Part shown: positions 30,740 through 48,402 of the stretch, piece after piece
Numbering within the stretch: the first letter of the stretch is position 1
Layout: each line of letters opens with the position of its first letter
Source of the DNA: a virus
Strand: one strand, 5' to 3'
Length of the DNA stretch: 64,000 nucleotides
Virus record (IMG/VR): IMGVR_UViG_3300017917_002441
Span: 1-64,000 of that record
Program-made: the position numbers and the translations under genes
Notes under the pieces: model-generated
What the model was told of the DNA's origin: nothing
What the model saw: the letters and a program-made list of their open reading frames with translations, nothing else
Databases searched by the model: none

Positions 30740-31503
30740 TATCGTCTTTCGATGTCATCTTCAACACAGCGGTCACCGTATTGAATTTCTACCACACGCA
30801 GTTCTTCTGTGCCTTCGTTACACAGCTGATGCCACTCATTGTTTTTGATATGAATGTGTTTGAACTTTTCAAACACGCCCAAGAGCTCTGCGTCAGTTTT
30901 TTGATTCACAGTATAAACAGTTGCAGTACCTTGTGCCACAAACCAGTGCTCTGCTCGGTCGTTGTGTCGTTGCATACTGAGATTTTGCCCAGGCGCAACA
31001 GTGAGTTCCTTGACTTTGACTTCGTTTGCTTGCTCATGTAACACACGGTAGTATCCCCAAGGACGTGCAGTTTTGGGAGCCTTCCATTCTTCAAGGATCC
31101 AACTGCTGGAATTTCGTTTGTCGAATCCGCCTACACCAAATACAAACTTGACATTGGTATCGGCAATGTCCATTTCAGGAATGTTTTTATCGGTACGATC
31201 CCCACCGTTGGCAAAGATAATTTCGTCATCTGGATATTTTTCACGAACTTTGGCAATGGCTGATTTAGCACTGCCGTCGCTGTCGTCGAACTCAATGACC
31301 CAATCAACCATGCTCAAGTGTCGTACCACAGATACTCGTTCTGCAAACGGCATAAAGGCACGCCCTTTTTTGCGTGACAGCCAGGCATCGCTGTTTAGGC
31401 CCACTACCAGCACATCGCCTAGGCGTCGTGCGTCTTTAAAATATTCAATGTGACCAGAGTGTATGGGGTCAAACCCACCAGTGACTAAAACAATTTTTTT
31501 CAT
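30739..31503 (-). CDS. Cytidylyltransferase-like domain fused to a mannose-6-phosphate isomerase-type cupin
   Basis: GGFDPIHSGH and GLNSD.WL..KKG; C-terminal RPWG.Y..LSMQRH..RAEHW..EIQYG...EDDIER. Confidence 0.88.
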   Translation of the reverse strand: MKKIVLVTGGFDPIHSGHIEYFKDARRLGDVLVVGLNSDAWLSRKKGRAFMPFAERVSVVRHLSMVDWVIEFDDSDGSAKSAIAKVREKYPDDEIIFANGGDRTDKNIPEMDIADTNVKFVFGVGGFDKRNSSSWILEEWKAPKTARPWGYYRVLHEQANEVKVKELTVAPGQNLSMQRHNDRAEHWFVAQGTATVYTVNQKTDAELLGVFEKFKHIHIKNNEWHQLCNEGTEELRVVEIQYGDRCVEDDIERR

Positions 31504-31508
31504 GCTAA

Positions 31509-31538
31509 TATTTATATGTGTAGATTATGGTGTAAATA
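31509..31538. promoter_or_regulatory. Divergent pair of late promoter motifs
   Basis: TATTTA at 31509-14 (minus) and TAAATA at 31533-38 (plus), each 5 nt from an ATG. Confidence 0.65.
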
Positions 31539-31543
31539 CATTT

Positions 31544-32185
31544 ATGGATCAAAACAACTGGTTAGACTACTTCAATACCAACTACTATCCACGCTTGATG
31601 CCAAAATCCAGTGGCGCCAAACGAGGCTTGATAGAAGGTCATTGCCAACGCGGCGATGGATTTTTGTTAATGTTTCAAAAATTATTGGCCAAGAACAAAG
31701 CACATTATAAAATTATTGAAACCGGAACACTACGGAATCCGGGCAATTGGAAAGATGGCCAAAGTGCTCAACTGTTTACTGAATTTGTTCAGCGGCACGG
31801 TGGCACTGTGCGAAGTGTTGATATTGATCCACATGCTGTGGACACTGCAAACAGTTTTATCACCAGTGACCAATTTTCCAGTCATTGCAGTGACAGCGTG
31901 GAATTTTTGAAACAACAAGCAGACTTGGCAGAAGTTGATTTGTTTTATCTTGACAGTTGGGACGTAAAGTGGGAAAACGATCAAGCCAGCGCAGAACATC
32001 ATCTCAAAGAGTTTTTAGCAATCGAGCCACACTTGCAACCTGGCGCTGTGGTGGCAATTGACGACAACTCTAGATTGCTGTCTAGCAACAACAGAACTGG
32101 CAAGGGCCGACGCATTGTAGATTATCTTGAAGCCAAAGGCGTACAGCCCATTTACGATGCTTATCAAATTATCTATCAATTCTAA
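31544..32185 (+). CDS. SAM-dependent methyltransferase
   Basis: IIETG, SVDID, DSVEFL, LFYLDS and AIDDN. Confidence 0.75.
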   Translation: MDQNNWLDYFNTNYYPRLMPKSSGAKRGLIEGHCQRGDGFLLMFQKLLAKNKAHYKIIETGTLRNPGNWKDGQSAQLFTEFVQRHGGTVRSVDIDPHAVDTANSFITSDQFSSHCSDSVEFLKQQADLAEVDLFYLDSWDVKWENDQASAEHHLKEFLAIEPHLQPGAVVAIDDNSRLLSSNNRTGKGRRIVDYLEAKGVQPIYDAYQIIYQF

Positions 32186-32187
32186 AC

Positions 32188-32991
32188 ATGATCATTGACA
32201 CCACACTGTTTAACGACGAGTTCCACATGTTGGACATACGCATTGCGCTGACCAAGAGCTGGGTAGATCGCTGGGTAATATGTGAAGGCAACCGCACCAT
32301 GAGTGGTAAACCCAAGCCCTATCATCTCAGCAACAACCTTGAACGCTACGCATATCTTGGCAATCGTTTGCGTGTGATCAAGTTGGATATTCCTGAGTCA
32401 TGGAGTAACTGGGACATTGAAAACGGACAACGTGCAGCCTTGCTACCAGGGTATCAAGATGTCGATGACAACGACATTGTGATGCACAGTGATTTGGATG
32501 AAATATTGAACCCCGAGTTAGTGCCAGAAATACTGGCCGAAGTTGAACAGCAAGATCGACCCATAAGTTGCGGCTTGGACATGTACATTTACCGCTTTGA
32601 TCAAAAATTAGATCGTAGCTGGGCTGGCAATGTTGTAGCCAAAAAACGCCACTTTGATGATCCTTGTCATTTGTACAAAGGATTGCAAGCCGGTGTTGGT
32701 CATGCACAAAAACGCAAAGATCGCAGTCATTGCGGTGCGTACAAGAAGTCAGCAGGCTGGCACTGGGGCTGGATGGGCAGTGATGATGTCATCAAAAACA
32801 AAATAGTCAGTTGCATTGAAAGCCAAAACAAAGACACTGAACAGACACTGAGTTACTTCCGTAACATTGACTTTGGTAACGCTATCAACCACAAATGTGT
32901 GACACATTATGTAGCAGACCCTGGCTACCCAGCCGAAGTCAACGCAGTGTTGCGTCAATACCCATTCTGGACCAATGGAAACCAAGGCTGA
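32188..32991 (+). CDS. GT17-like N-acetylglucosaminyltransferase
   Basis: FNDE..ML.IR, ICEGN.T.SG.PKP, E..QR, SDLDEI and GWH. Confidence 0.8.
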   Translation: MIIDTTLFNDEFHMLDIRIALTKSWVDRWVICEGNRTMSGKPKPYHLSNNLERYAYLGNRLRVIKLDIPESWSNWDIENGQRAALLPGYQDVDDNDIVMHSDLDEILNPELVPEILAEVEQQDRPISCGLDMYIYRFDQKLDRSWAGNVVAKKRHFDDPCHLYKGLQAGVGHAQKRKDRSHCGAYKKSAGWHWGWMGSDDVIKNKIVSCIESQNKDTEQTLSYFRNIDFGNAINHKCVTHYVADPGYPAEVNAVLRQYPFWTNGNQG

Positions 32992-34676: not shown

Positions 34677-35708
34677 ATGAGTACAATTCGTATTTGGAAT
34701 GGTGTGTATCGCAACAAGCCGGTACAAAATGTAGAGTTCAAGTTAGTCAAAGGTTACCAAACTGGTGCCAAGGGCGGCTTTGTAACTGTAGACAGCGAGG
34801 GCTACTTTGGCCCGGAGTTCACTGTTGTACGCATTCGCGTCAACGACATCAAGGATTTTGAATATACCGCAAGGGAGCCCATGCAAGACAACACTGTACA
34901 TTTTGAAAAGCCCGCAGCCAAGCCTGTGGAAACTGACGAAGAAGTCATTACTCGCATTCGCGAGCGTTTTGATATCCTGCACGAAATGACCAAGGCCTGT
35001 GTCAACGGTGACATCCGTGCTATGATTGTGTCTGGCCCTCCCGGGGTAGGCAAGAGTTTTGGTGTTGAGCAAGAGATTGAAAAAGTGCAGATGATGCAGA
35101 TGCTGGGTCAGAAGCGACTCCGCGCTGAGGTTGTCAAGGGCTCAGCTACCCCAATTGGCCTGTACCAAACTCTGTACAAATACTCAGATCCCAACTGTGT
35201 GATTGTGTTTGACGACTGTGACAGCATTCTGGTGGACGACGTTGCACTGAACTTGCTGAAAGGTGCATTGGACTCAGGTAAGAAGCGTAAGATTTCGTGG
35301 TTGTCAGAGTCCAGTACTCTGCGTCGTGAAGGCATTCCTGACAGCTTTGAGTTCAAGGGCTCGGTAATTTTTATTACCAACCTCAAGTTTGATCAAATGA
35401 AGTCGCAAAAGCTTCGCGATCACTTGGATGCACTGCAATCGCGCTGTCACTATCTTGACTTGACATTGGATACCATGCGTGACAAGATTTTGCGTATCAA
35501 GCAAATTGCCAAGGATGGTGTGTTGTTTGCAGACTACGACTTTGAGCCTTGTGTACAAGACGAGCTTATTGACTTCATGGCTGAGAACCAAACTCGCATG
35601 CGTGAGATGAGCTTGCGTATGGCAATCAAGATTGCTGACTTGCGCAAGAGCTTTCCCAACAACTGGAAACGCATGGCAGAAACAACTTGCATGAAGGCTC
35701 CGGCCTAA
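34677..35708 (+). CDS. AAA+ ATPase
   Basis: GPPGVGKS, VFDDCD, FITN sensor and ALQSR arginine finger. Confidence 0.88.
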   Translation: MSTIRIWNGVYRNKPVQNVEFKLVKGYQTGAKGGFVTVDSEGYFGPEFTVVRIRVNDIKDFEYTAREPMQDNTVHFEKPAAKPVETDEEVITRIRERFDILHEMTKACVNGDIRAMIVSGPPGVGKSFGVEQEIEKVQMMQMLGQKRLRAEVVKGSATPIGLYQTLYKYSDPNCVIVFDDCDSILVDDVALNLLKGALDSGKKRKISWLSESSTLRREGIPDSFEFKGSVIFITNLKFDQMKSQKLRDHLDALQSRCHYLDLTLDTMRDKILRIKQIAKDGVLFADYDFEPCVQDELIDFMAENQTRMREMSLRMAIKIADLRKSFPNNWKRMAETTCMKAPA

Positions 35709-36828: not shown

Positions 36829-38289
36829 ATGAAAACTGCAACCATTATTATTCGTGACGAAGTCAATATCAAGATCGAAGGCCTGGATCTTGATGCACGG
36901 CGAGCCCTTGTCAACAAATTCAAATACGATGTGCCTTATGCACGTTACCTACCAGCAGTGAGACTGGGACGGTGGGACGGCAAGGTCAGCTACTTCCAAT
37001 TGGGCGGAAGCACTTACACAAGTCTACTGCCAGAGATTGTGCCCATACTTGAGGGCTTGAACTATGATCTTGAGCTAGATGACCAACGTGACTACAGCAC
37101 ATACTTTGAGTTCAAACAAGTAAACGAGGACAGCTACAGTCACATCATGTGGCCCAAAGGTCACCCCATGGCTGGTCAGCCCATGAGCTTGCGTGACTAT
37201 CAAGTTGAGATCGTCAACAACTTTCTAGACAACCCACAGTGCATTCAAGAAGTGGCCACAGGTGCAGGTAAGACTGTTATGACTGCGGCTTTAAGTGATG
37301 CTGTTACACCTTATGGTCGTAGCATTGTGATTGTGCCCAACAAGAGTCTTGTTACACAAACAGAAAAAGACTATGTGAACATGCAGTTGGATGTGGGTGT
37401 GTACTTTGGTGATCGCAAAGAGTGGGGTCGCCAACACACAATTTGCACATGGCAAAGCTTGAACGTACTGCTAAAGAATACCAAAGCCGGAGTAGGGGAC
37501 TGCACCATTGGCGAGTTCCTAGAGGGAGTAGTATGTGTCATTGTTGACGAAGTACACATGGCCAAAGCTGATGCATTAAAAACATTGCTCACTGGCGTAA
37601 TGGCTAGAGTGCCTATTCGCTGGGGGTTGACTGGAACCATACCCAAGGAAGCATTTGAAAGTGTAGCACTCAAAGTCAGTCTTGGCCCTGTGGTGTCTAA
37701 GTTAGCAGCCAGTGACTTGCAAGAAAAGGGTGTGTTGGCACAGTGCCATGTGAACATTGTGCAGTTGGTTGACCATGCAGAGTTTACCAACTATCAAAGT
37801 GAATTGAAGTACTTATTAGAAGAACCTGACAGACTGCAAGCCATTGCAGGACTGATACAGCAAGTAAAAGAAACTGGCAACACCTTAGTGTTGGTAGATA
37901 GGATCGCAGCCGGCACAGAGCTAGTTCGTTTGCTAGGTGATCGTGCAGTGTTTGTAAGTGGAGCCACCAAAGCAGGAGACAGACAAGATGAATACGACGA
38001 AGTTGCAAACGTGGATGATAAGATTATTGTGGCGACTTATGGTGTGGCCGCTGTGGGTATTAATATCCCTAGGATTTTTAATTTGGTTCTTGTGGAGCCC
38101 GGAAAAAGCTTTGTCCGCGTTATACAATCAATTGGGCGGGGCATTAGAAAAGCCGAAGACAAAGACCACGTTGAAATCTGGGATATCACATCCACGTGTA
38201 GATTTGCCAAACGCCACCTCACTAAGCGCAAAACGTTTTATAAGGAAGCCAATTATCCGTTTACGCAAGAAAAACTAGAGTGGAAGTAA
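36829..38289 (+). CDS. uvsW: SF2 DNA helicase
   Basis: LRDYQ, ATGAGKT, DEVH, GLTGT and QSIGRGIR. Confidence 0.9.
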   Translation: MKTATIIIRDEVNIKIEGLDLDARRALVNKFKYDVPYARYLPAVRLGRWDGKVSYFQLGGSTYTSLLPEIVPILEGLNYDLELDDQRDYSTYFEFKQVNEDSYSHIMWPKGHPMAGQPMSLRDYQVEIVNNFLDNPQCIQEVATGAGKTVMTAALSDAVTPYGRSIVIVPNKSLVTQTEKDYVNMQLDVGVYFGDRKEWGRQHTICTWQSLNVLLKNTKAGVGDCTIGEFLEGVVCVIVDEVHMAKADALKTLLTGVMARVPIRWGLTGTIPKEAFESVALKVSLGPVVSKLAASDLQEKGVLAQCHVNIVQLVDHAEFTNYQSELKYLLEEPDRLQAIAGLIQQVKETGNTLVLVDRIAAGTELVRLLGDRAVFVSGATKAGDRQDEYDEVANVDDKIIVATYGVAAVGINIPRIFNLVLVEPGKSFVRVIQSIGRGIRKAEDKDHVEIWDITSTCRFAKRHLTKRKTFYKEANYPFTQEKLEWK

Positions 38290-40745: not shown

Positions 40746-41175
40746 CATCAAAAATGAAATGCGGCAGCTGGACCGCAAAAACAGAAACTTCTATAACGAG
40801 CTTACAGATGAGGAGCGCAAGAAGTTCAGTTTGTTTTTGATGATTCGTTGGGGGTCGGCTGTGGATAGCTCACGCGAGTTGCAAGAGTATTATGTACAGA
40901 GTTGCAATCACTATCTCAACAAACACTTTTTCAATATTAGTAAACATCCTAAACTGCAATGGCTGTGTGCCACAGCAGTGAGTCCTGGATTGGGCACACC
41001 CAACCATCCTTGGATTGCGCCAAAAAAGAAAGAGGCCGGTGCGTCAGCTCGTCGTAAACAACTACAAACAATATTTCCCACATACAAGGATGACGAAATT
41101 GATGTCATGATGAAAATTGTGTCAGACAAAGAGATCAAAGAATATCAACGTCAAGCAGGCCAAGATGACAAATGA
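40729..41175 (+). CDS. Probable clamp loader small subunit (gp62-like)
   Basis: Size and the FLMIRW.S..N..LQW..PWI..KK pattern resemble gp62. Confidence 0.5.
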   Translation: MSDKLNIKNEMRQLDRKNRNFYNELTDEERKKFSLFLMIRWGSAVDSSRELQEYYVQSCNHYLNKHFFNISKHPKLQWLCATAVSPGLGTPNHPWIAPKKKEAGASARRKQLQTIFPTYKDDEIDVMMKIVSDKEIKEYQRQAGQDDK

Positions 41176-41846
41176 CTTACCAGTGTCAATATTGTAAACG
41201 AGACTTTCAAAAAGAAAGCACACTCAGTGTGCATGTGTGCGAGCAAAAACGTCGCAGACAAGAGAAAGACGACCGCGGAGTACAGTTGGGATTCCAAGCC
41301 TATGTGCGTTTCTTTGAAATGACTCAGGGTTCGGCCAAGTTCAAAACATACGATGACTTTTGCGAAAGTCCTTACTACCGTGCGTTTGTGAAGTTTGGGC
41401 ACTATTGTTACAGCGTCAAAGTAATCAACCCCAAGCAGTTTCTAGAATGGTTGTTGCGGAACAACAAAAAGATTGATCGGTGGGCGTCGGATCAACTGTA
41501 CACAGAATATTTGTTGCACTATCTCAAGTTGGAAAATGTCGCAGATGCTATTGCACGTGCAATTGAGTTTGGTATTGACTGGGCAGAAAAGAACGAAGCC
41601 CAGCCCAATGATTGCTTACGTTACGGCAACGCCAATGCTATGTGTTACGCTATTACCACAGGGCGCATCAGTCCCTGGGTAGTATACAACTGCGAATCAG
41701 GACAGCGTTTTTTAAATGATCTTGACCAAGGTCAAATTGCAATGATATGGCCTTACATTGACAGTGACAGTTGGATGAAAAAGTTTTCAGACTACCCAGC
41801 AGATCAAGAGTGGGCCAAAGAAATGTTAAACAAAGCAGGATGGTAA
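41172..41846 (+). CDS. Protein with N-terminal classical-type zinc finger
   Basis: YQCQYCKRDFQKESTLSVHVC. Confidence 0.65.
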   Translation: MTYQCQYCKRDFQKESTLSVHVCEQKRRRQEKDDRGVQLGFQAYVRFFEMTQGSAKFKTYDDFCESPYYRAFVKFGHYCYSVKVINPKQFLEWLLRNNKKIDRWASDQLYTEYLLHYLKLENVADAIARAIEFGIDWAEKNEAQPNDCLRYGNANAMCYAITTGRISPWVVYNCESGQRFLNDLDQGQIAMIWPYIDSDSWMKKFSDYPADQEWAKEMLNKAGW

Positions 41847-41847
41847 T

Positions 41848-42210
41848 ATGATTAAAGGAATCGGACCCAGTGGCAAGTACATCACTACATCTGGTGGTGG
41901 TGGTGCTACTTCTACATACGTAAACAATTATGGCAGTGCCATGGGCACAGGCAACATGCGCTACAACACTTCTAGTCAAAACATCGAAGTATGGGATGGT
42001 AGTAACTGGATTATGTTAAACATGGGTTATGCCAGTGTGGGACTTACTGATGAAGCAGAGTCTTTGCTAGACTGGGCAAAACAAAAACGGGCCGAAGAAT
42101 TTGAAATCAATGAATTGGCCAAGAGCAATGCCACCTTGGCAGATGCAGTGGCAGTGTTAAAGCAAGCACAAGAACAAGTTAAAATTTTAGCAGCCTTGGT
42201 AAAAGAATGA
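41848..42210 (+). CDS. Hypothetical protein
   Basis: ORF in operon. Confidence 0.7.
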   Translation: MIKGIGPSGKYITTSGGGGATSTYVNNYGSAMGTGNMRYNTSSQNIEVWDGSNWIMLNMGYASVGLTDEAESLLDWAKQKRAEEFEINELAKSNATLADAVAVLKQAQEQVKILAALVKE

Positions 42211-43256
42211 CGCTGAAAATCAATGCATCTGGTTTGCTAGAAAATTTTATCAATAGATATTTGATCTGGCGCGACTTTCAAAATTTCTATAACACTGCCA
42301 GCGAACCAGTTGCGAAGATAGCCAAGGACGGTATTCCTTGTTTTGGGTATTGGGAAATTAACAAGATAAATGCTAGCACTGCTCCGTTGGTTGCAATAGA
42401 CTGCATGACCGAAGGAATACATTCTAGAAAAACATTTGATCACTATCGTGCAGACAAAAAATATATAATTTTTTGCAACGGTGACTGGGACCCAACGTAC
42501 TATGATTTAAAGATTGATTATGTTGTGGTACCTCATTTGTTTTTTCTGTTTGAGATGGCTGACACTTACAACAGTCCAAATCGTTTTTGTTATTTTACAG
42601 ACAAAGTTTATGACTTTGATTGCCACAAAGAGTATGAGTTTGTGACCACAATTGGCAACGTTCGTCCCGAGAGAACTAAGTTAGTAGATAAACTAGTAGA
42701 AATTGCCAAGCACAAAAAATGTATTGTTCGATACAGTGGCCAGGATTATGCAGAGCCCAGCGACCATCTTGATGTAATAAAATTCACCCCTGGAGAGTTT
42801 GACCCTTACATTGATGTTCAGCCAACACACTATCATAATGTAAGTCAAACCTTGCCCATGAAAATGTATAACTTGGCTCGATTTAACCTGGCAGTTGAGA
42901 CTGACATTGATTTCCAGCACTCGTTTTTTCTGACAGAAAAAACAATCAAAGTGTTGTTGACTGGTATGCCGTTTGTATCAATGAATCATCCAAATTTTTT
43001 ACCAAGGCTACACAAACTTGGGTTTACTACATACGGAGAGTTGTGGGACGAAAGTTATGACCAGGAAGTTGATTTTGACAAGCGCCTAGAAAAAGTTGTA
43101 CAATTGTGCAACAAGCTATGTAACTTTGATTGGGAAGGCAATCGTGATAAGTTAGAGTTGATTAAATTAAAGAATCAATCAAATTTTTTAAACTTAAATC
43201 ATGTATGCAATAAAGAATTTTTACGGTTTGAACAAATAATAAAAGATATAACATGA
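42207..43256 (+). CDS. Putative glycosyltransferase, 'TEK' family paralog 3
   Basis: LAVET..FLTEKT..MPF..LGF.TY..WDESYD. Confidence 0.5.
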   Translation: MTLKINASGLLENFINRYLIWRDFQNFYNTASEPVAKIAKDGIPCFGYWEINKINASTAPLVAIDCMTEGIHSRKTFDHYRADKKYIIFCNGDWDPTYYDLKIDYVVVPHLFFLFEMADTYNSPNRFCYFTDKVYDFDCHKEYEFVTTIGNVRPERTKLVDKLVEIAKHKKCIVRYSGQDYAEPSDHLDVIKFTPGEFDPYIDVQPTHYHNVSQTLPMKMYNLARFNLAVETDIDFQHSFFLTEKTIKVLLTGMPFVSMNHPNFLPRLHKLGFTTYGELWDESYDQEVDFDKRLEKVVQLCNKLCNFDWEGNRDKLELIKLKNQSNFLNLNHVCNKEFLRFEQIIKDIT

Positions 43257-43831
43257 GTGCAGACATTGACATTGATGTGCCCAATCGTGATGCTGTATTA
43301 AAACTGATACAGCATGTACCAGCACGTCAAACACATGACGGGAAAGTTCGTCGTCACAACTCAGGAATCTATGTCACAGCTATCCCGCAAGATCCCATGC
43401 ATGAGTGTGCGGCGTTGGATTATCAAGAAGCTGAACAGCGTGGGTATTTCAAAATTGACTTGTTGAACATGAGTGTGTATCAGCTGGTCAAGGATCCTGC
43501 ACACTATGAAAAGATGTTGACTGCAACACCCCCGTGGTCAAGACTATGGACTGACACAGCGTGGACACAGCAATTGGTGCATGTGGGAAACTATACAGAT
43601 TTATTAAAAAAGATGCAGCCAGATTCTATTCCAAGAATGGCAGCATTTATCAGTATTATTAGACCAGGCAAGGCCCACTTGCAAAATCAACCCTGGGATC
43701 AAGTTTTTAAATCAGTGTGGGATGGTGACGACAGTAAGGGTTACACGTTTAAAAAGAGCCATGCTGTGAGTTATGCGGCTCTTGTTGCTTTGCACATGAA
43801 TCTACTCAATCAAAATTCAGCGCCGGAATAA
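43253..43831 (+). CDS. Miniature DNA polymerase III alpha (DnaE)-like catalytic fragment
   Basis: DIDID, HNSGIYV, GYFKIDLL, IRPG and YTFKKSHAVSYA in DnaE order within 192 aa. Confidence 0.85.
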   Translation: MSADIDIDVPNRDAVLKLIQHVPARQTHDGKVRRHNSGIYVTAIPQDPMHECAALDYQEAEQRGYFKIDLLNMSVYQLVKDPAHYEKMLTATPPWSRLWTDTAWTQQLVHVGNYTDLLKKMQPDSIPRMAAFISIIRPGKAHLQNQPWDQVFKSVWDGDDSKGYTFKKSHAVSYAALVALHMNLLNQNSAPE

Positions 43832-44540
43832 CAAACTGCTCTGCAAATAGTTTGTGAGCTTTGCTGGTTGGATGAGAAGTGCAGTCCATTTCGCCAAGTT
43901 GATTAGCAAATTCTCCCAAACAGTTGCGTTGACGGTCAATAAAAACCCACTGGTCAAAGCTATAATTTTTATACGCAGGCACATCTTGTAAAAAGTAGTC
44001 CATACAGTAGTCTCCTGTAATAGGCGAAGATTCTACTGCATGATTCCACTGATTAACATAGCCAGCAAATCTGTACTGATATTGATTTGCTTTTAGATAA
44101 CTTTCCAAGTTAACGATATATGACAGTGAGTCTTTACACAGTGATACTGGGTCTGCTAGTTTGTAAGCCCACTCAAAGATTTGTTTTGTGGAAGAGTTAG
44201 TTATCCAACTGTTTGTTAATCCGCCACTAAAAAGATAATACTCGTCGGGACTGTTGGATATGCAACATCTATATCCTTGTTTGAGGTGATAATACCATTC
44301 CCCAGACAGCCTAATGTCTTTTCTCCCGGTGCCAGACCACATGATAACAACAATGGTTTCTGCTGGGTTTAGTTGAGCTGATGCAAGATAGTCAATGGTG
44401 CTGTTAGCAATGTAAAAATTTCCAGCGCCACCTTGTGCTAGATTTTTATAAGTGCTGGGAGTTAGGGAAGAGTTAACGTAGTGCGCCCAAGATTTGCCCT
44501 GTGTAAATGAACAACCGTTTACAACAAGGTTTTTTATCAT
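43806..44540 (-). CDS. SGNH/GDSL-like protein
   Basis: NGCSFT, NLAQGGAGN and D..HPT..AH. Confidence 0.6.
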   Translation of the reverse strand: MIKNLVVNGCSFTQGKSWAHYVNSSLTPSTYKNLAQGGAGNFYIANSTIDYLASAQLNPAETIVVIMWSGTGRKDIRLSGEWYYHLKQGYRCCISNSPDEYYLFSGGLTNSWITNSSTKQIFEWAYKLADPVSLCKDSLSYIVNLESYLKANQYQYRFAGYVNQWNHAVESSPITGDYCMDYFLQDVPAYKNYSFDQWVFIDRQRNCLGEFANQLGEMDCTSHPTSKAHKLFAEQFVIPALNFD

Positions 44541-44917
44541 TAATCAATTCTCCGTACCAGGGTAATTGATTTACGTTTGGTTTTCTTACGGGAGATATCC
44601 ATTAAGCTACATACTGGACCATGAATGATTTCTAAATCTTTATTGCTGAATGTACGTAGTGTAAAGCGGAATTGGTCCCACTCACTGCGTAAGAAGATGT
44701 TTATGGGTATGCTACGATTGCTCTCCCACCACCAAACACTGGCCAGCTCTAAGAACTGTACTTTGCTGGCTTGATCTACCACAGCACCAAAGTCGTAGAT
44801 GGTGGTAACAGCATCGTCCCTGTTCTGTATTACCCCTACGTATTCTTGATTAGCGTATAAACAAAGCGTTATAAAGGGGTACTTTTCAGCTAGTTTGTCA
44901 AACAGTGTATTGCCCAT
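44540..44917 (-). CDS. Hypothetical protein
   Basis: ORF coupled to 43806; WWWESNRSIPINIFL. Confidence 0.7.
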   Translation of the reverse strand: MGNTLFDKLAEKYPFITLCLYANQEYVGVIQNRDDAVTTIYDFGAVVDQASKVQFLELASVWWWESNRSIPINIFLRSEWDQFRFTLRTFSNKDLEIIHGPVCSLMDISRKKTKRKSITLVRRID

Positions 44918-46037: not shown

Positions 46038-47024
46038 ATGCTTGACATCTTGACGTATCTTCCTGCGAAACGAAAACAGACCCCCAGCGGCTGGATCAGT
46101 TTCAATGCACCGTGTTGTCAACACAACGGCAACACCCAGGATCGTCGTCAGCGTGGTGGTCTAAAGCCCAATGATCAAGGTTGGAGTTATCACTGTTTCA
46201 ATTGTGGATACACTGCCAGCTTTCAACTTGGGCGCAATGTTTCATTCAAGGCACGTAGACTGCTGGGTTGGATGGGAGTGCCCGACAATGAAATTGAGCA
46301 TTTGAATTTAGAAAGTATGAAGCACAGAAATGTGCATGGCATATTAAACGAACGTCAGCGGCTGAGCAATGCGCTGAGTGCCATTGAATTTGAAGAAAAG
46401 GACTTGCCGCCTTTTGCTGAATTGCTAACACCTGAGCACAAGTATTACTGGGATTATGTTCAAAGTCGATGTGTGCCTGCAGACTTTCCCATGATGGTTC
46501 AAATTGAAAACGACGGCATACATTGGACAAGATCACATGTAGTTGTGCCATTTACATACGACAATAAAGTAGTTGGTTGGACTTGTAGATTTTTAGACAA
46601 CAAACAACCCAAATACATTTCAGACAGTCAACCTGGTTATGTGTTTGGAGTAGATTTGCAACATAGTGACTGGCAACATGTGATTGTGACCGAAGGTATA
46701 TTTGATGCACTCAGCATCAACGGTGTGGCAGTGATGCACAACACCATAAGCGACGCACAGGCCAGACTGATACGCAGCCTGGACCGTGCCATTACAGTGG
46801 TTCCTGACATGGACAGTGCGGGGGTAGAGTTGATTGACCGTGCAGTGGAATTGGGGTGGGCCGTGAGCATACCTGACTGGCCCGAAGGCGTCAAGGATGT
46901 CAACGATGCTGTGATTCGTTTGGGCAAACTGCCTACACTGCTAACTATACTGCAAGCTAGAGAAACCAGTAAAATTAAGATAGAATTAAAGAGGAAGCAA
47001 CTTGTTAAAAGAATACGGAACTGA
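46038..47024 (+). CDS. DNA primase (gp61-like)
   Basis: Zinc ribbon (PCC..HCFNC); TOPRIM EGIFDA, PDMD.AG and KDVND. Confidence 0.9.
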   Translation: MLDILTYLPAKRKQTPSGWISFNAPCCQHNGNTQDRRQRGGLKPNDQGWSYHCFNCGYTASFQLGRNVSFKARRLLGWMGVPDNEIEHLNLESMKHRNVHGILNERQRLSNALSAIEFEEKDLPPFAELLTPEHKYYWDYVQSRCVPADFPMMVQIENDGIHWTRSHVVVPFTYDNKVVGWTCRFLDNKQPKYISDSQPGYVFGVDLQHSDWQHVIVTEGIFDALSINGVAVMHNTISDAQARLIRSLDRAITVVPDMDSAGVELIDRAVELGWAVSIPDWPEGVKDVNDAVIRLGKLPTLLTILQARETSKIKIELKRKQLVKRIRN

Positions 47025-48402
47025 TGTACAGCGATTGTTTCTAGAAATGATGCTGGAGGACGCACAGAGTTTTGTGCGAGTATCCAACATCTACAATGCC
47101 AGCAATTTTGATAAAAATCTGCGCCCGGCCGCAGAGTTTATTCGCGAACACAGCGACAAATTTAAAACCATGCCTGACAGACTGCAGATTGAAGCAGCCA
47201 CAGGTATAAAGTTACAGGCAGTGCCAGACTTGAACGAAGGCCACTATGAGTGGTTCATGCAAGAGTTTGAAGCATTTACCAAGCGCCAAGAACTGGAACG
47301 TGCTATTCTCAAAGCCGCTGACTTGCTGGAAAAGGGCGAGTTTGATCCCGTGGAAAAACTCATAAAGGATGCTGTACAAATTTCATTGACCAAGGACATG
47401 GGCACAGACTTTTGGATGGATCCCGAAGGCATGTTTGCCAAGTACTTTGATGCAGGTGGACAAGTTTCAACTGGTTGGCCACAACTGGACAAACTGTTGT
47501 ATGGTGGGTTCAGTCGCGGCGAACTCAACATCTTTGCAGGTGGATCAGGATCAGGTAAATCCTTGGTGATGATGAACATTGCGCTAAACTGGGTGCAACA
47601 AGGATTGAATGGTGTGTACATCACACTAGAACTTAGTGAAGAGCTCACAGGCTTGCGTACAGCGGCCATGCTGACCAACATGAGCACAAAAGATATCCGC
47701 AAAGACAAAGAAACAGCGGCGTTAAAAGTCAAGTTAGTGGGCAAGAAAGCCGGTAGCTATCAAGTCAAAGCACTGCCAGCACAGAGTAACATCAATGACA
47801 TTCGTGCATACTTGAAAGAATATCAAATCAAGAGTGGCAAGAAGGTAGACTTCATGATGATTGACTACTTAGACTTGTTGATGCCTGTCAGCGCAAAAGT
47901 CAGCCCCAATGACTTATTTGTCAAAGACAAGTATGTGTCAGAAGAACTTCGTAACCTAGCCAAGGAGCTGGGTATATTGATGGTAACTGCATCGCAGTTG
48001 AACCGTAGTGCAGTTGAGGAGATTGAGTTTGATCACTCGCATATTTCAGGTGGTATTTCAAAGATTAATACTGCGGACAACGTATTTGGTATTTTTACTA
48101 GCCGTGCTATGCGTGAGCGTGGCAAGTATCAAATTCAGTGTATGAAAAGTCGTAGTTCCACAGGTGTGGGACAAAAGATTGACTTGGAGTACAACATTGA
48201 AACCATGCGTATCACAGACGAGGGTGGCGATGAGGGAGGCTCGGGTGGATTTACCAAGAAGCCCAGTATTCTTGAGTCAATTAAAACACAGAGTCGTGTC
48301 GTGGAATCGGCGCCCGATGAAGACGCCGATGTTGGTAAAGTCACTGCCGATGTTCAAAGTGCCAAGCTCAAACAGCTACTTGGCAAAATCAAAACCAATT
48401 AA
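47002..48402 (+). CDS. Replicative DnaB-like helicase (gp41-like)
   Basis: GGSGSGKS, TLELSE, IDYLDL and TASQLNR; TTG start with GAGGA RBS. Confidence 0.92.
   Translation: MLKEYGTDVQRLFLEMMLEDAQSFVRVSNIYNASNFDKNLRPAAEFIREHSDKFKTMPDRLQIEAATGIKLQAVPDLNEGHYEWFMQEFEAFTKRQELERAILKAADLLEKGEFDPVEKLIKDAVQISLTKDMGTDFWMDPEGMFAKYFDAGGQVSTGWPQLDKLLYGGFSRGELNIFAGGSGSGKSLVMMNIALNWVQQGLNGVYITLELSEELTGLRTAAMLTNMSTKDIRKDKETAALKVKLVGKKAGSYQVKALPAQSNINDIRAYLKEYQIKSGKKVDFMMIDYLDLLMPVSAKVSPNDLFVKDKYVSEELRNLAKELGILMVTASQLNRSAVEEIEFDHSHISGGISKINTADNVFGIFTSRAMRERGKYQIQCMKSRSSTGVGQKIDLEYNIETMRITDEGGDEGGSGGFTKKPSILESIKTQSRVVESAPDEDADVGKVTADVQSAKLKQLLGKIKTN

Follow-up and report, generated by a model that had tools for sequence, protein, structure and literature searches.

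The closest described counterpart of the gene studied here is the split minimal DNA polymerase III (Pol III) alpha subunit of group 2.2 jumbo phages, described in section 3.4.1 of Iyer, Anantharaman, Krishnan, Burroughs and Aravind (2021, Viruses 13:63, PMC7824862). As set out there, an Mg2+- and template-binding C-terminal unit and an NTP-binding N-terminal unit are encoded by distant genes and lack PHP, OB and clamp-binding parts. The same source suggests that the split enzyme cooperates with family B DNA polymerase (PolB) in one-strand synthesis or in repair, and that it is possibly an ancestral form. An earlier paper on phage CBB (PMC5259590) had drawn attention to a 'truncated' Pol III alpha of 172 aa, along with a DnaQ-like epsilon. 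Here we analysed a window of 64,000 nucleotides, positions 1 to 64,000 of the IMG/VR virus record IMGVR_UViG_3300017917_002441, and within it an open reading frame (ORF) of 192 aa that very probably encodes the C-terminal subunit of such a split minimal Pol III alpha, from an uncultured jumbo phage of group 2.2 (RaK2/PA5oct-like, T4-related). The protein belongs to this published family, whose enzyme was described from sequence in 2021; it shares 42% identity with its PA5oct counterpart and about 35% with those of RaK2/121Q. The C-terminal unit of Iyer et al. corresponds to PHROG 11778 and the N-terminal unit to PHROG 11127. Our locus shares with their system the division of labour between two units, the distant genes, the missing domains, the T4-like replication module and a PolB in relatives, and it does not differ in kind from what that section describes. 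The halves lie about 96 kb apart here and 31-44 kb apart in Ettore, 121Q and RaK2. What our analysis adds to that account is confined to rare single-chain forms, where section 3.4.1 describes the split form only, and to the size of the family in metagenomes.

The ORF (Table 1) is uninterrupted, with neither a frameshift nor an internal stop. Its start ATG overlaps the TGA of the 349-aa ORF upstream (ATGA), and its last 26 nt are shared with a convergent ORF on the minus strand. The intact frame and the ATGA-coupled start had been pointed out in the first-pass annotation of this DNA, and both are plain in the sequence. Its motifs, D4-I-D6-I-D8, H35-N-S-G38, K67-I-D69, R137-P-G139 and K167-K-S-H170, follow each other in the order found in DnaE. 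The metal-binding aspartates of the palm are D4, D6 and D69, equivalent to D401, D403 and D555 of Escherichia coli alpha, while R137-P-G and K167-K-S-H170 belong to the fingers. The collinearity with DnaE that had been proposed for all of these motifs was borne out by profiles for DxDxD, KxD, RP and KKSH: on E. coli alpha the C-half profile lays K-x-D on GLVKFDFLG, RP on RPG and FKKSHA on FNKSHS. The residue-by-residue pairing with RPG covers RP. HNSG is placed by superposition only, the model's residues 1-191 laid onto E. coli 399-781 suggesting that it is the equivalent of HAGGVV. Neither a Pfam search nor structural alignment found PHP, GRGS, thumb, HhH/beta-binding or OB in the ORF, and for PHP, thumb, HhH and OB its length leaves too little space. 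Thus the absence of PHP, GRGS, HhH, OB and clamp-binding regions, also claimed before, was upheld, the one Pfam match being a weak one to the fingers.

Searched as a single sequence, the protein gave as its best Pfam match DNA_pol3_finger, below threshold (E 0.12), with DNA_pol3_alpha below threshold as well; in the PDB it gave DnaE at E 0.25, outranked by a spurious match to Vac8. As these single-sequence matches are insignificant, PHROGs and profile searches were needed. Residues 3-187 match positions 7-193 of PHROG 11778 ('DNA polymerase', 197 positions; E 8e-53), and the protein also matches positions 578-681 of PHROG 405 (Pol III alpha, 1190 positions; E 8e-8). From representatives of 50%-identity clusters we built an alignment (A1) of 83 full-length homologues, 26-66% identical to the window protein, and its profile gave nine PDB matches with E values from 2.8e-6 (E. 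coli Pol III alpha) to 8e-5, every one of them to Pol III alpha. Two collinear stretches, 538-641 and 739-769, were aligned on E. coli alpha. Against two truncated bacterial DnaE fragments the profile laid DxDxD on PDFDIDF, without reaching significance.

The structure predicted by AlphaFold2 from A1 has a predicted local distance difference test score (pLDDT) of 95.7 and a predicted template-modelling score (pTM) of 0.88. In a Foldseek search of this model against the PDB the top 17 matches were C-family polymerases throughout, and VIA-align gave Z 6.4-9.7 across 16 C-family polymerase entries, the next, unrelated fold scoring 3.4. Between 179 and 190 of the 192 residues were aligned to the C-family chains, on residues 460-838 of Thermus aquaticus (Taq) alpha (3E0D), 970-1295 of PolC (3F2B), 418-808 of Mycobacterium tuberculosis DnaE1 (5LEW) and 399-781 of E. 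coli alpha (2HNH). On E. coli alpha the 192 residues thus cover a span of 383 (model residues 1-191 on 399-781), of which about 190 are deleted in the phage protein. By profile alignment the missing blocks are roughly 406-512, which includes the thumb, 642-738, which is part of the fingers, and everything past 781; neither profile nor structural alignment found anything in the phage protein beyond the equivalent of that last residue. Together with its partner, described below, the phage protein has in common with bacterial Pol III alpha and PolC the Pol-beta-fold palm with DxD and KxD, the GRGS loop (carried by the partner), RPG and F(N/K)KSH; on superposition with these enzymes the C-half scored Z 6.4-9.7 and a fused homologue 12-20. 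Unlike DnaE and PolC, it has no PHP, thumb, beta-binding/HhH, OB or tau-binding tail and lacks about half of the fingers. Its core comes in two polypeptides, split at the equivalent of E. coli residues ~393-399, whereas canonical DnaE and PolC are single chains of more than 1000 aa.

That the ORF is half of a split C-family enzyme with a GRGS-bearing partner encoded elsewhere had been suggested by the first-pass annotation, and such a partner was found. The window's own virus record is 149 kb long and 44% complete, and searching it with Pfam DNA_pol3_alpha returned one match outside the window, a 179-aa ORF (or 173 aa, should the second Met be the start) that lies downstream, with 95.7 kb from start to start. 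The partner scores 26.7 bits against PF07733 (cut-off 23.9; profile positions 21-94), matches PHROG 11127 (E 2e-37) and falls on positions 361-432 of PHROG 405, upstream of the positions matched by the C-half. It carries GVGRGSS and ends in ...IWGVGRGSSVASYVLYKLGVHRIDSMFYDLDPQEFLR-stop, so that its terminal EFLR stands just ahead of the expected PDxDxD; the C-half in turn begins three residues ahead of DxDxD, and the junction reads EFLR-stop / MSA-DIDID. Pfam found no PHP match on either half. The first ~78 aa of the GRGS subunit (contig 138973-139206; L003:1186-1419) have no DnaE counterpart and are kept among close relatives, and their equivalent in the fused model described below has pLDDT <50; this leader may serve to dock some other replisome protein.

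The two halves occur together, among isolates in about 95 jumbo phages. A tblastn search of isolate phages located the C-half in 96 records and the N-half in 93, and for the commonest genera the two counts agree; the isolates are RaK2-, 121Q-, GAP32-, CBB-, PA5oct-, XacN1-, SCTP-2- and Atu_ph07-type jumbo phages. Both halves are also present in the IMG/VR relatives G001 (364 kb, with terminal repeats, 100% complete), G003, G006, G007 and G010. Contigs with one half only are fragments or end just before the expected position of the other half (e.g. G008).

In three metagenomic proteins the halves are joined in one chain. P0170 (375 aa; gene at L090:1066-2193, on a 2.4-kb ENA contig, translating as called), P0272 and P0273 (376 aa each) consist of the N-half, a linker of ~10 aa (KDNKEGIYNIA) and the C-half. 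Residues 319-421 of E. coli alpha align with a profile of fusions and N-halves that runs unbroken over the split point; GVGRGSS...DxDxD is paired with GPGRGSGAGS...FERFLNPERVSM-PDFDVD, the PDFDVD being residues 400-405. For P0170 AlphaFold2 gave a model with mean pLDDT 73.6 and pTM 0.68; from residue 80 on, pLDDT blocks are 63-97 outside the linker and one loop, and residues 1-79 and the linker are low. It superposes on Taq Pol III alpha with Z 19.9 (287 residues, 3.4 A) and on PolC with Z 19.2, and the next folds, CCA-adding enzymes, MenT toxins and Pol beta, reach Z about 4 (best 4.1). Three of the joint MAFFT alignments (A2, A4 and A6) put N-halves onto the C-half and A5 alone, with four C-halves, kept the register, so the P0170 model rests on a shallow alignment. 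The three fusions make up a clade of their own in a midpoint-rooted FastTree tree of C-halves, inside a 12-tip clade (support 0.99) in which the remaining nine tips are split forms. Since the fusions are nested among split forms, the single-chain fusion is probably secondary to the split form; the tree is silent on the origin of the minimal core.

In the mechanism that we propose, the 192-aa unit would pair non-covalently, with no intein involved, with the 179-aa unit encoded 95.7 kb away, which would supply the GRGS nucleotide-binding loop. The two would rebuild a thumbless nucleotidyltransferase core of roughly 370 aa with a Pol-beta fold. Beside the PolB replicase this core would form a second DNA polymerase, probably a distributive one, serving for example in repair, in gap filling or on one replication arm. 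Several points weigh against this picture. The protein lacks the thumb, the beta-clamp-binding domain, OB and, from the fingers, about 97 residues (E. coli ~642-738), a stretch that includes triphosphate-binding arginines; the grip on primer-template and the binding of dNTP may therefore differ from those of the C-family enzymes that have been studied. The model of P0170 is only moderately confident, and the other four models score 56-61. We searched the literature for experiments on the split minimal Pol III alpha and found none. Finally, no PF00136 match to a family B polymerase was obtained in the phage's own record, nor was there an RNase_T/DnaQ match; the record being 44% complete, both absences are uninformative. 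A PolB of about 900 aa, by contrast, was found in the close relatives G001, G006 and G007 (each at least 91% complete) and in the isolates Ettore and 121Q, so that the polB which the first-pass annotation had proposed to look for is present in relatives and was not seen in the record itself. RaK2-like relatives encode a DnaQ-like epsilon beside uvsW (121Q gene 9, CBB_280); in the present phage it is either absent from the lineage or located in the missing 56% of the genome.

A bolder view, which we consider unlikely, would make this the smallest natural C-family polymerase (~370 aa in two chains, or 375 aa in the rare single chain), doing a job that PolB cannot do, such as repair or gap synthesis or the copying of modified DNA, or else, as raised in the account of Iyer et al., an ancestral, pre-cellular Pol III rather than a reduced bacterial capture. 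It is improbable, too, that the two-subunit core, though active, does not work as a templated DNA polymerase and instead uses the generic Pol-beta nucleotidyltransferase fold as a terminal transferase, a synthase of primers or signal nucleotides, or an enzyme for modified nucleotides. The modules that grip primer-template DNA (thumb, clamp-binding, OB) are indeed absent, the phage is, judging by its relatives, already equipped with a family B replicase, and after the C-family polymerases the fused model is nearest to CCA-adding enzymes, MenT toxins and Pol beta. However, C-family polymerases score Z 19.9 and these other nucleotidyltransferases about 4, a difference which shows that the specific polymerase architecture has been kept. 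The RPG and FKKSH motifs of the fingers, which in Pol III alpha position the template and the incoming dNTP, with the His as the proposed sugar gate, are conserved, and the gene lies among replisome genes. The non-replicative or template-independent role floated in the first-pass annotation is purely speculative, and these fingers motifs and the replisome surroundings speak against template independence.

The extreme reduction of the protein, 192 aa as against more than 1100 aa in cellular DnaE, might also be expected had the phage captured a bacterial dnaE and kept only a decaying remnant of it or a non-catalytic pseudoenzyme. The conservation of the family speaks strongly against this. Among the 83 sequences of A1, D4, D6, K67, D69 and P138 are invariant, and conservation is 90% or more at D8, H35, G38, R137, K140, K167 and H170. 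Intact homologous genes were recovered from 75 of 80 IMG/VR loci, with proteins 76-86% identical and all key residues invariant, and D4, D6 and D69 are unchanged in the 83 diverse and in 76 close homologues. The median ratio of nonsynonymous to synonymous substitutions (dN/dS) is 0.08 (Nei-Gojobori, 833 pairs with dS 0.05-1), so the gene is under strong purifying selection and neutral evolution is not supported. In the length range searched, 105-336 aa, the family comprises 7479 clusters at 90% identity, the best 120 matches being 186-212 aa long; at 50% identity it forms 372 clusters. The model, as noted above, is well folded. With residue conservation, dN/dS and family size taken together, a decaying remnant and an assembly artefact are ruled out for practical purposes, a remnant or pseudoenzyme retaining at most a very slight chance.

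Ligation of the halves after translation by a split intein is more improbable still. Cyanobacteria do have naturally split dnaE genes whose products are joined by trans-splicing inteins, and the phage system resembles theirs in making a C-family polymerase from two distant genes. The cyanobacterial halves are full-size, unlike those of the phage, and are divided in the fingers near residue 774; the phage halves carry no intein, and the break between them falls in the palm, with the GRGS loop on one side and DxD on the other. The N-half stops at EFLR, the C-half starts right ahead of DxDxD, the fusions hold merely the roughly 10-aa linker between the junction points, and both ORFs are fully covered by polymerase-homologous sequence apart from the ~78-aa leader of the N-half, which is at the wrong end. 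Comparison of both ORFs with the fused homologues revealed no intein-sized segment at either junction, in agreement with the first-pass annotation, which had seen no intein. A full-length dnaE truncated by an error of assembly or gene calling is excluded, and nothing was found in its favour: of 80 independent IMG/VR contigs 75 show an ORF with these limits, as do 96 isolate phage records judged by the extent of the tblastn matches, the flanking genes are conserved and unrelated to dnaE, and a search directed at longer proteins yielded, besides the 375-aa fusions, no full-length DnaE relative and one chance-level match only.

The gene for the C-terminal subunit lies within the replication module, between the gene for the UvsW-like helicase and those for primase and the DnaB-like helicase, and the layout is identical in Ettore and 121Q (Table 1). 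No near-identical isolate came up when 3 kb surrounding the gene were compared with isolate phages by megablast. The two ORFs that touch the polymerase half, the 349-aa ORF and the DUF6071-like ORF, are lineage-variable inserts and not conserved partners. In relatives it is the 125-aa phrog_11637 ORF that directly adjoins the polymerase half, and its protein is 79-96% identical in eight of these loci, equal to or above the polymerase half. Ettore and 121Q have a minus-strand gene at the equivalent place, immediately downstream of the polymerase half, the comparison being one of position only. We regard the 125-aa protein as a candidate functional partner of the polymerase half.

Table 1. Coordinates of the two polymerase halves and of other features, in window positions unless a contig is named; loci are counted among 80 related loci
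Feature	Position	Strand	Size (aa)	Evidence and occurrence
Methyltransf_24 protein	31463-32185	+		
Glycosyltransferase family 17-like protein	32188-32991	+		
AAA+ protein	34677-35708	+	343	phrog_1250, E 2e-83
UvsW-like DNA helicase	36829..38289	+		phrog_16, E 6e-72
Conserved upstream neighbour	41172..41846	+	224	phrog_11058; 76/80 loci
Conserved small upstream neighbour	41848..42210	+	120	weak PHROG matches only; 63/80 loci
Upstream ORF coupled by ATGA to the polymerase half	42207..43256	+	349	no Pfam or PHROG match; 8/80 loci
C-terminal subunit of split minimal Pol III alpha (probable)	43253..43831	+	192	Mg2+-binding palm strands and reduced fingers module
DUF6071-like convergent ORF	43806..44540	-	244	Pfam DUF6071, E 5.8e-6, just under cut-off; 2/80 loci
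Conserved convergent neighbour	44540..44917	-	125	phrog_11637; 79/80 loci
DNA primase	46038..47024	+		phrog_47, E 5e-35
DnaB/gp41-like replicative helicase	47002..48402	+		phrog_19, E 5e-67
N-terminal GRGS subunit	contig 138973..139512	+	179	Pfam PF07733; phrog_11127

Two further observations concern the region upstream of the UvsW-like helicase. The AAA+ protein encoded there shows weak similarity to clamp loaders and to DnaC-like helicase loaders. The genes for the Methyltransf_24 protein and the glycosyltransferase family 17-like protein adjoin each other and may be DNA- or surface-modification genes.

The family to which the 192-aa protein belongs is widespread, with 7479 clusters at 90% and 372 at 50% identity and members in all RaK2/PA5oct-type jumbo phages, and it marks the minimum sequence that still resembles the active site of a C-family polymerase. 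P0170, P0272 and P0273 are convenient constructs for biochemistry. If the two chains, or the 375-aa single chain, do form a working Pol III core, this would inform the evolution of Pol-beta-fold replicases and the use of such a core as a compact enzyme scaffold, and it would bear on why phages with a T4-type PolB retain a second polymerase.

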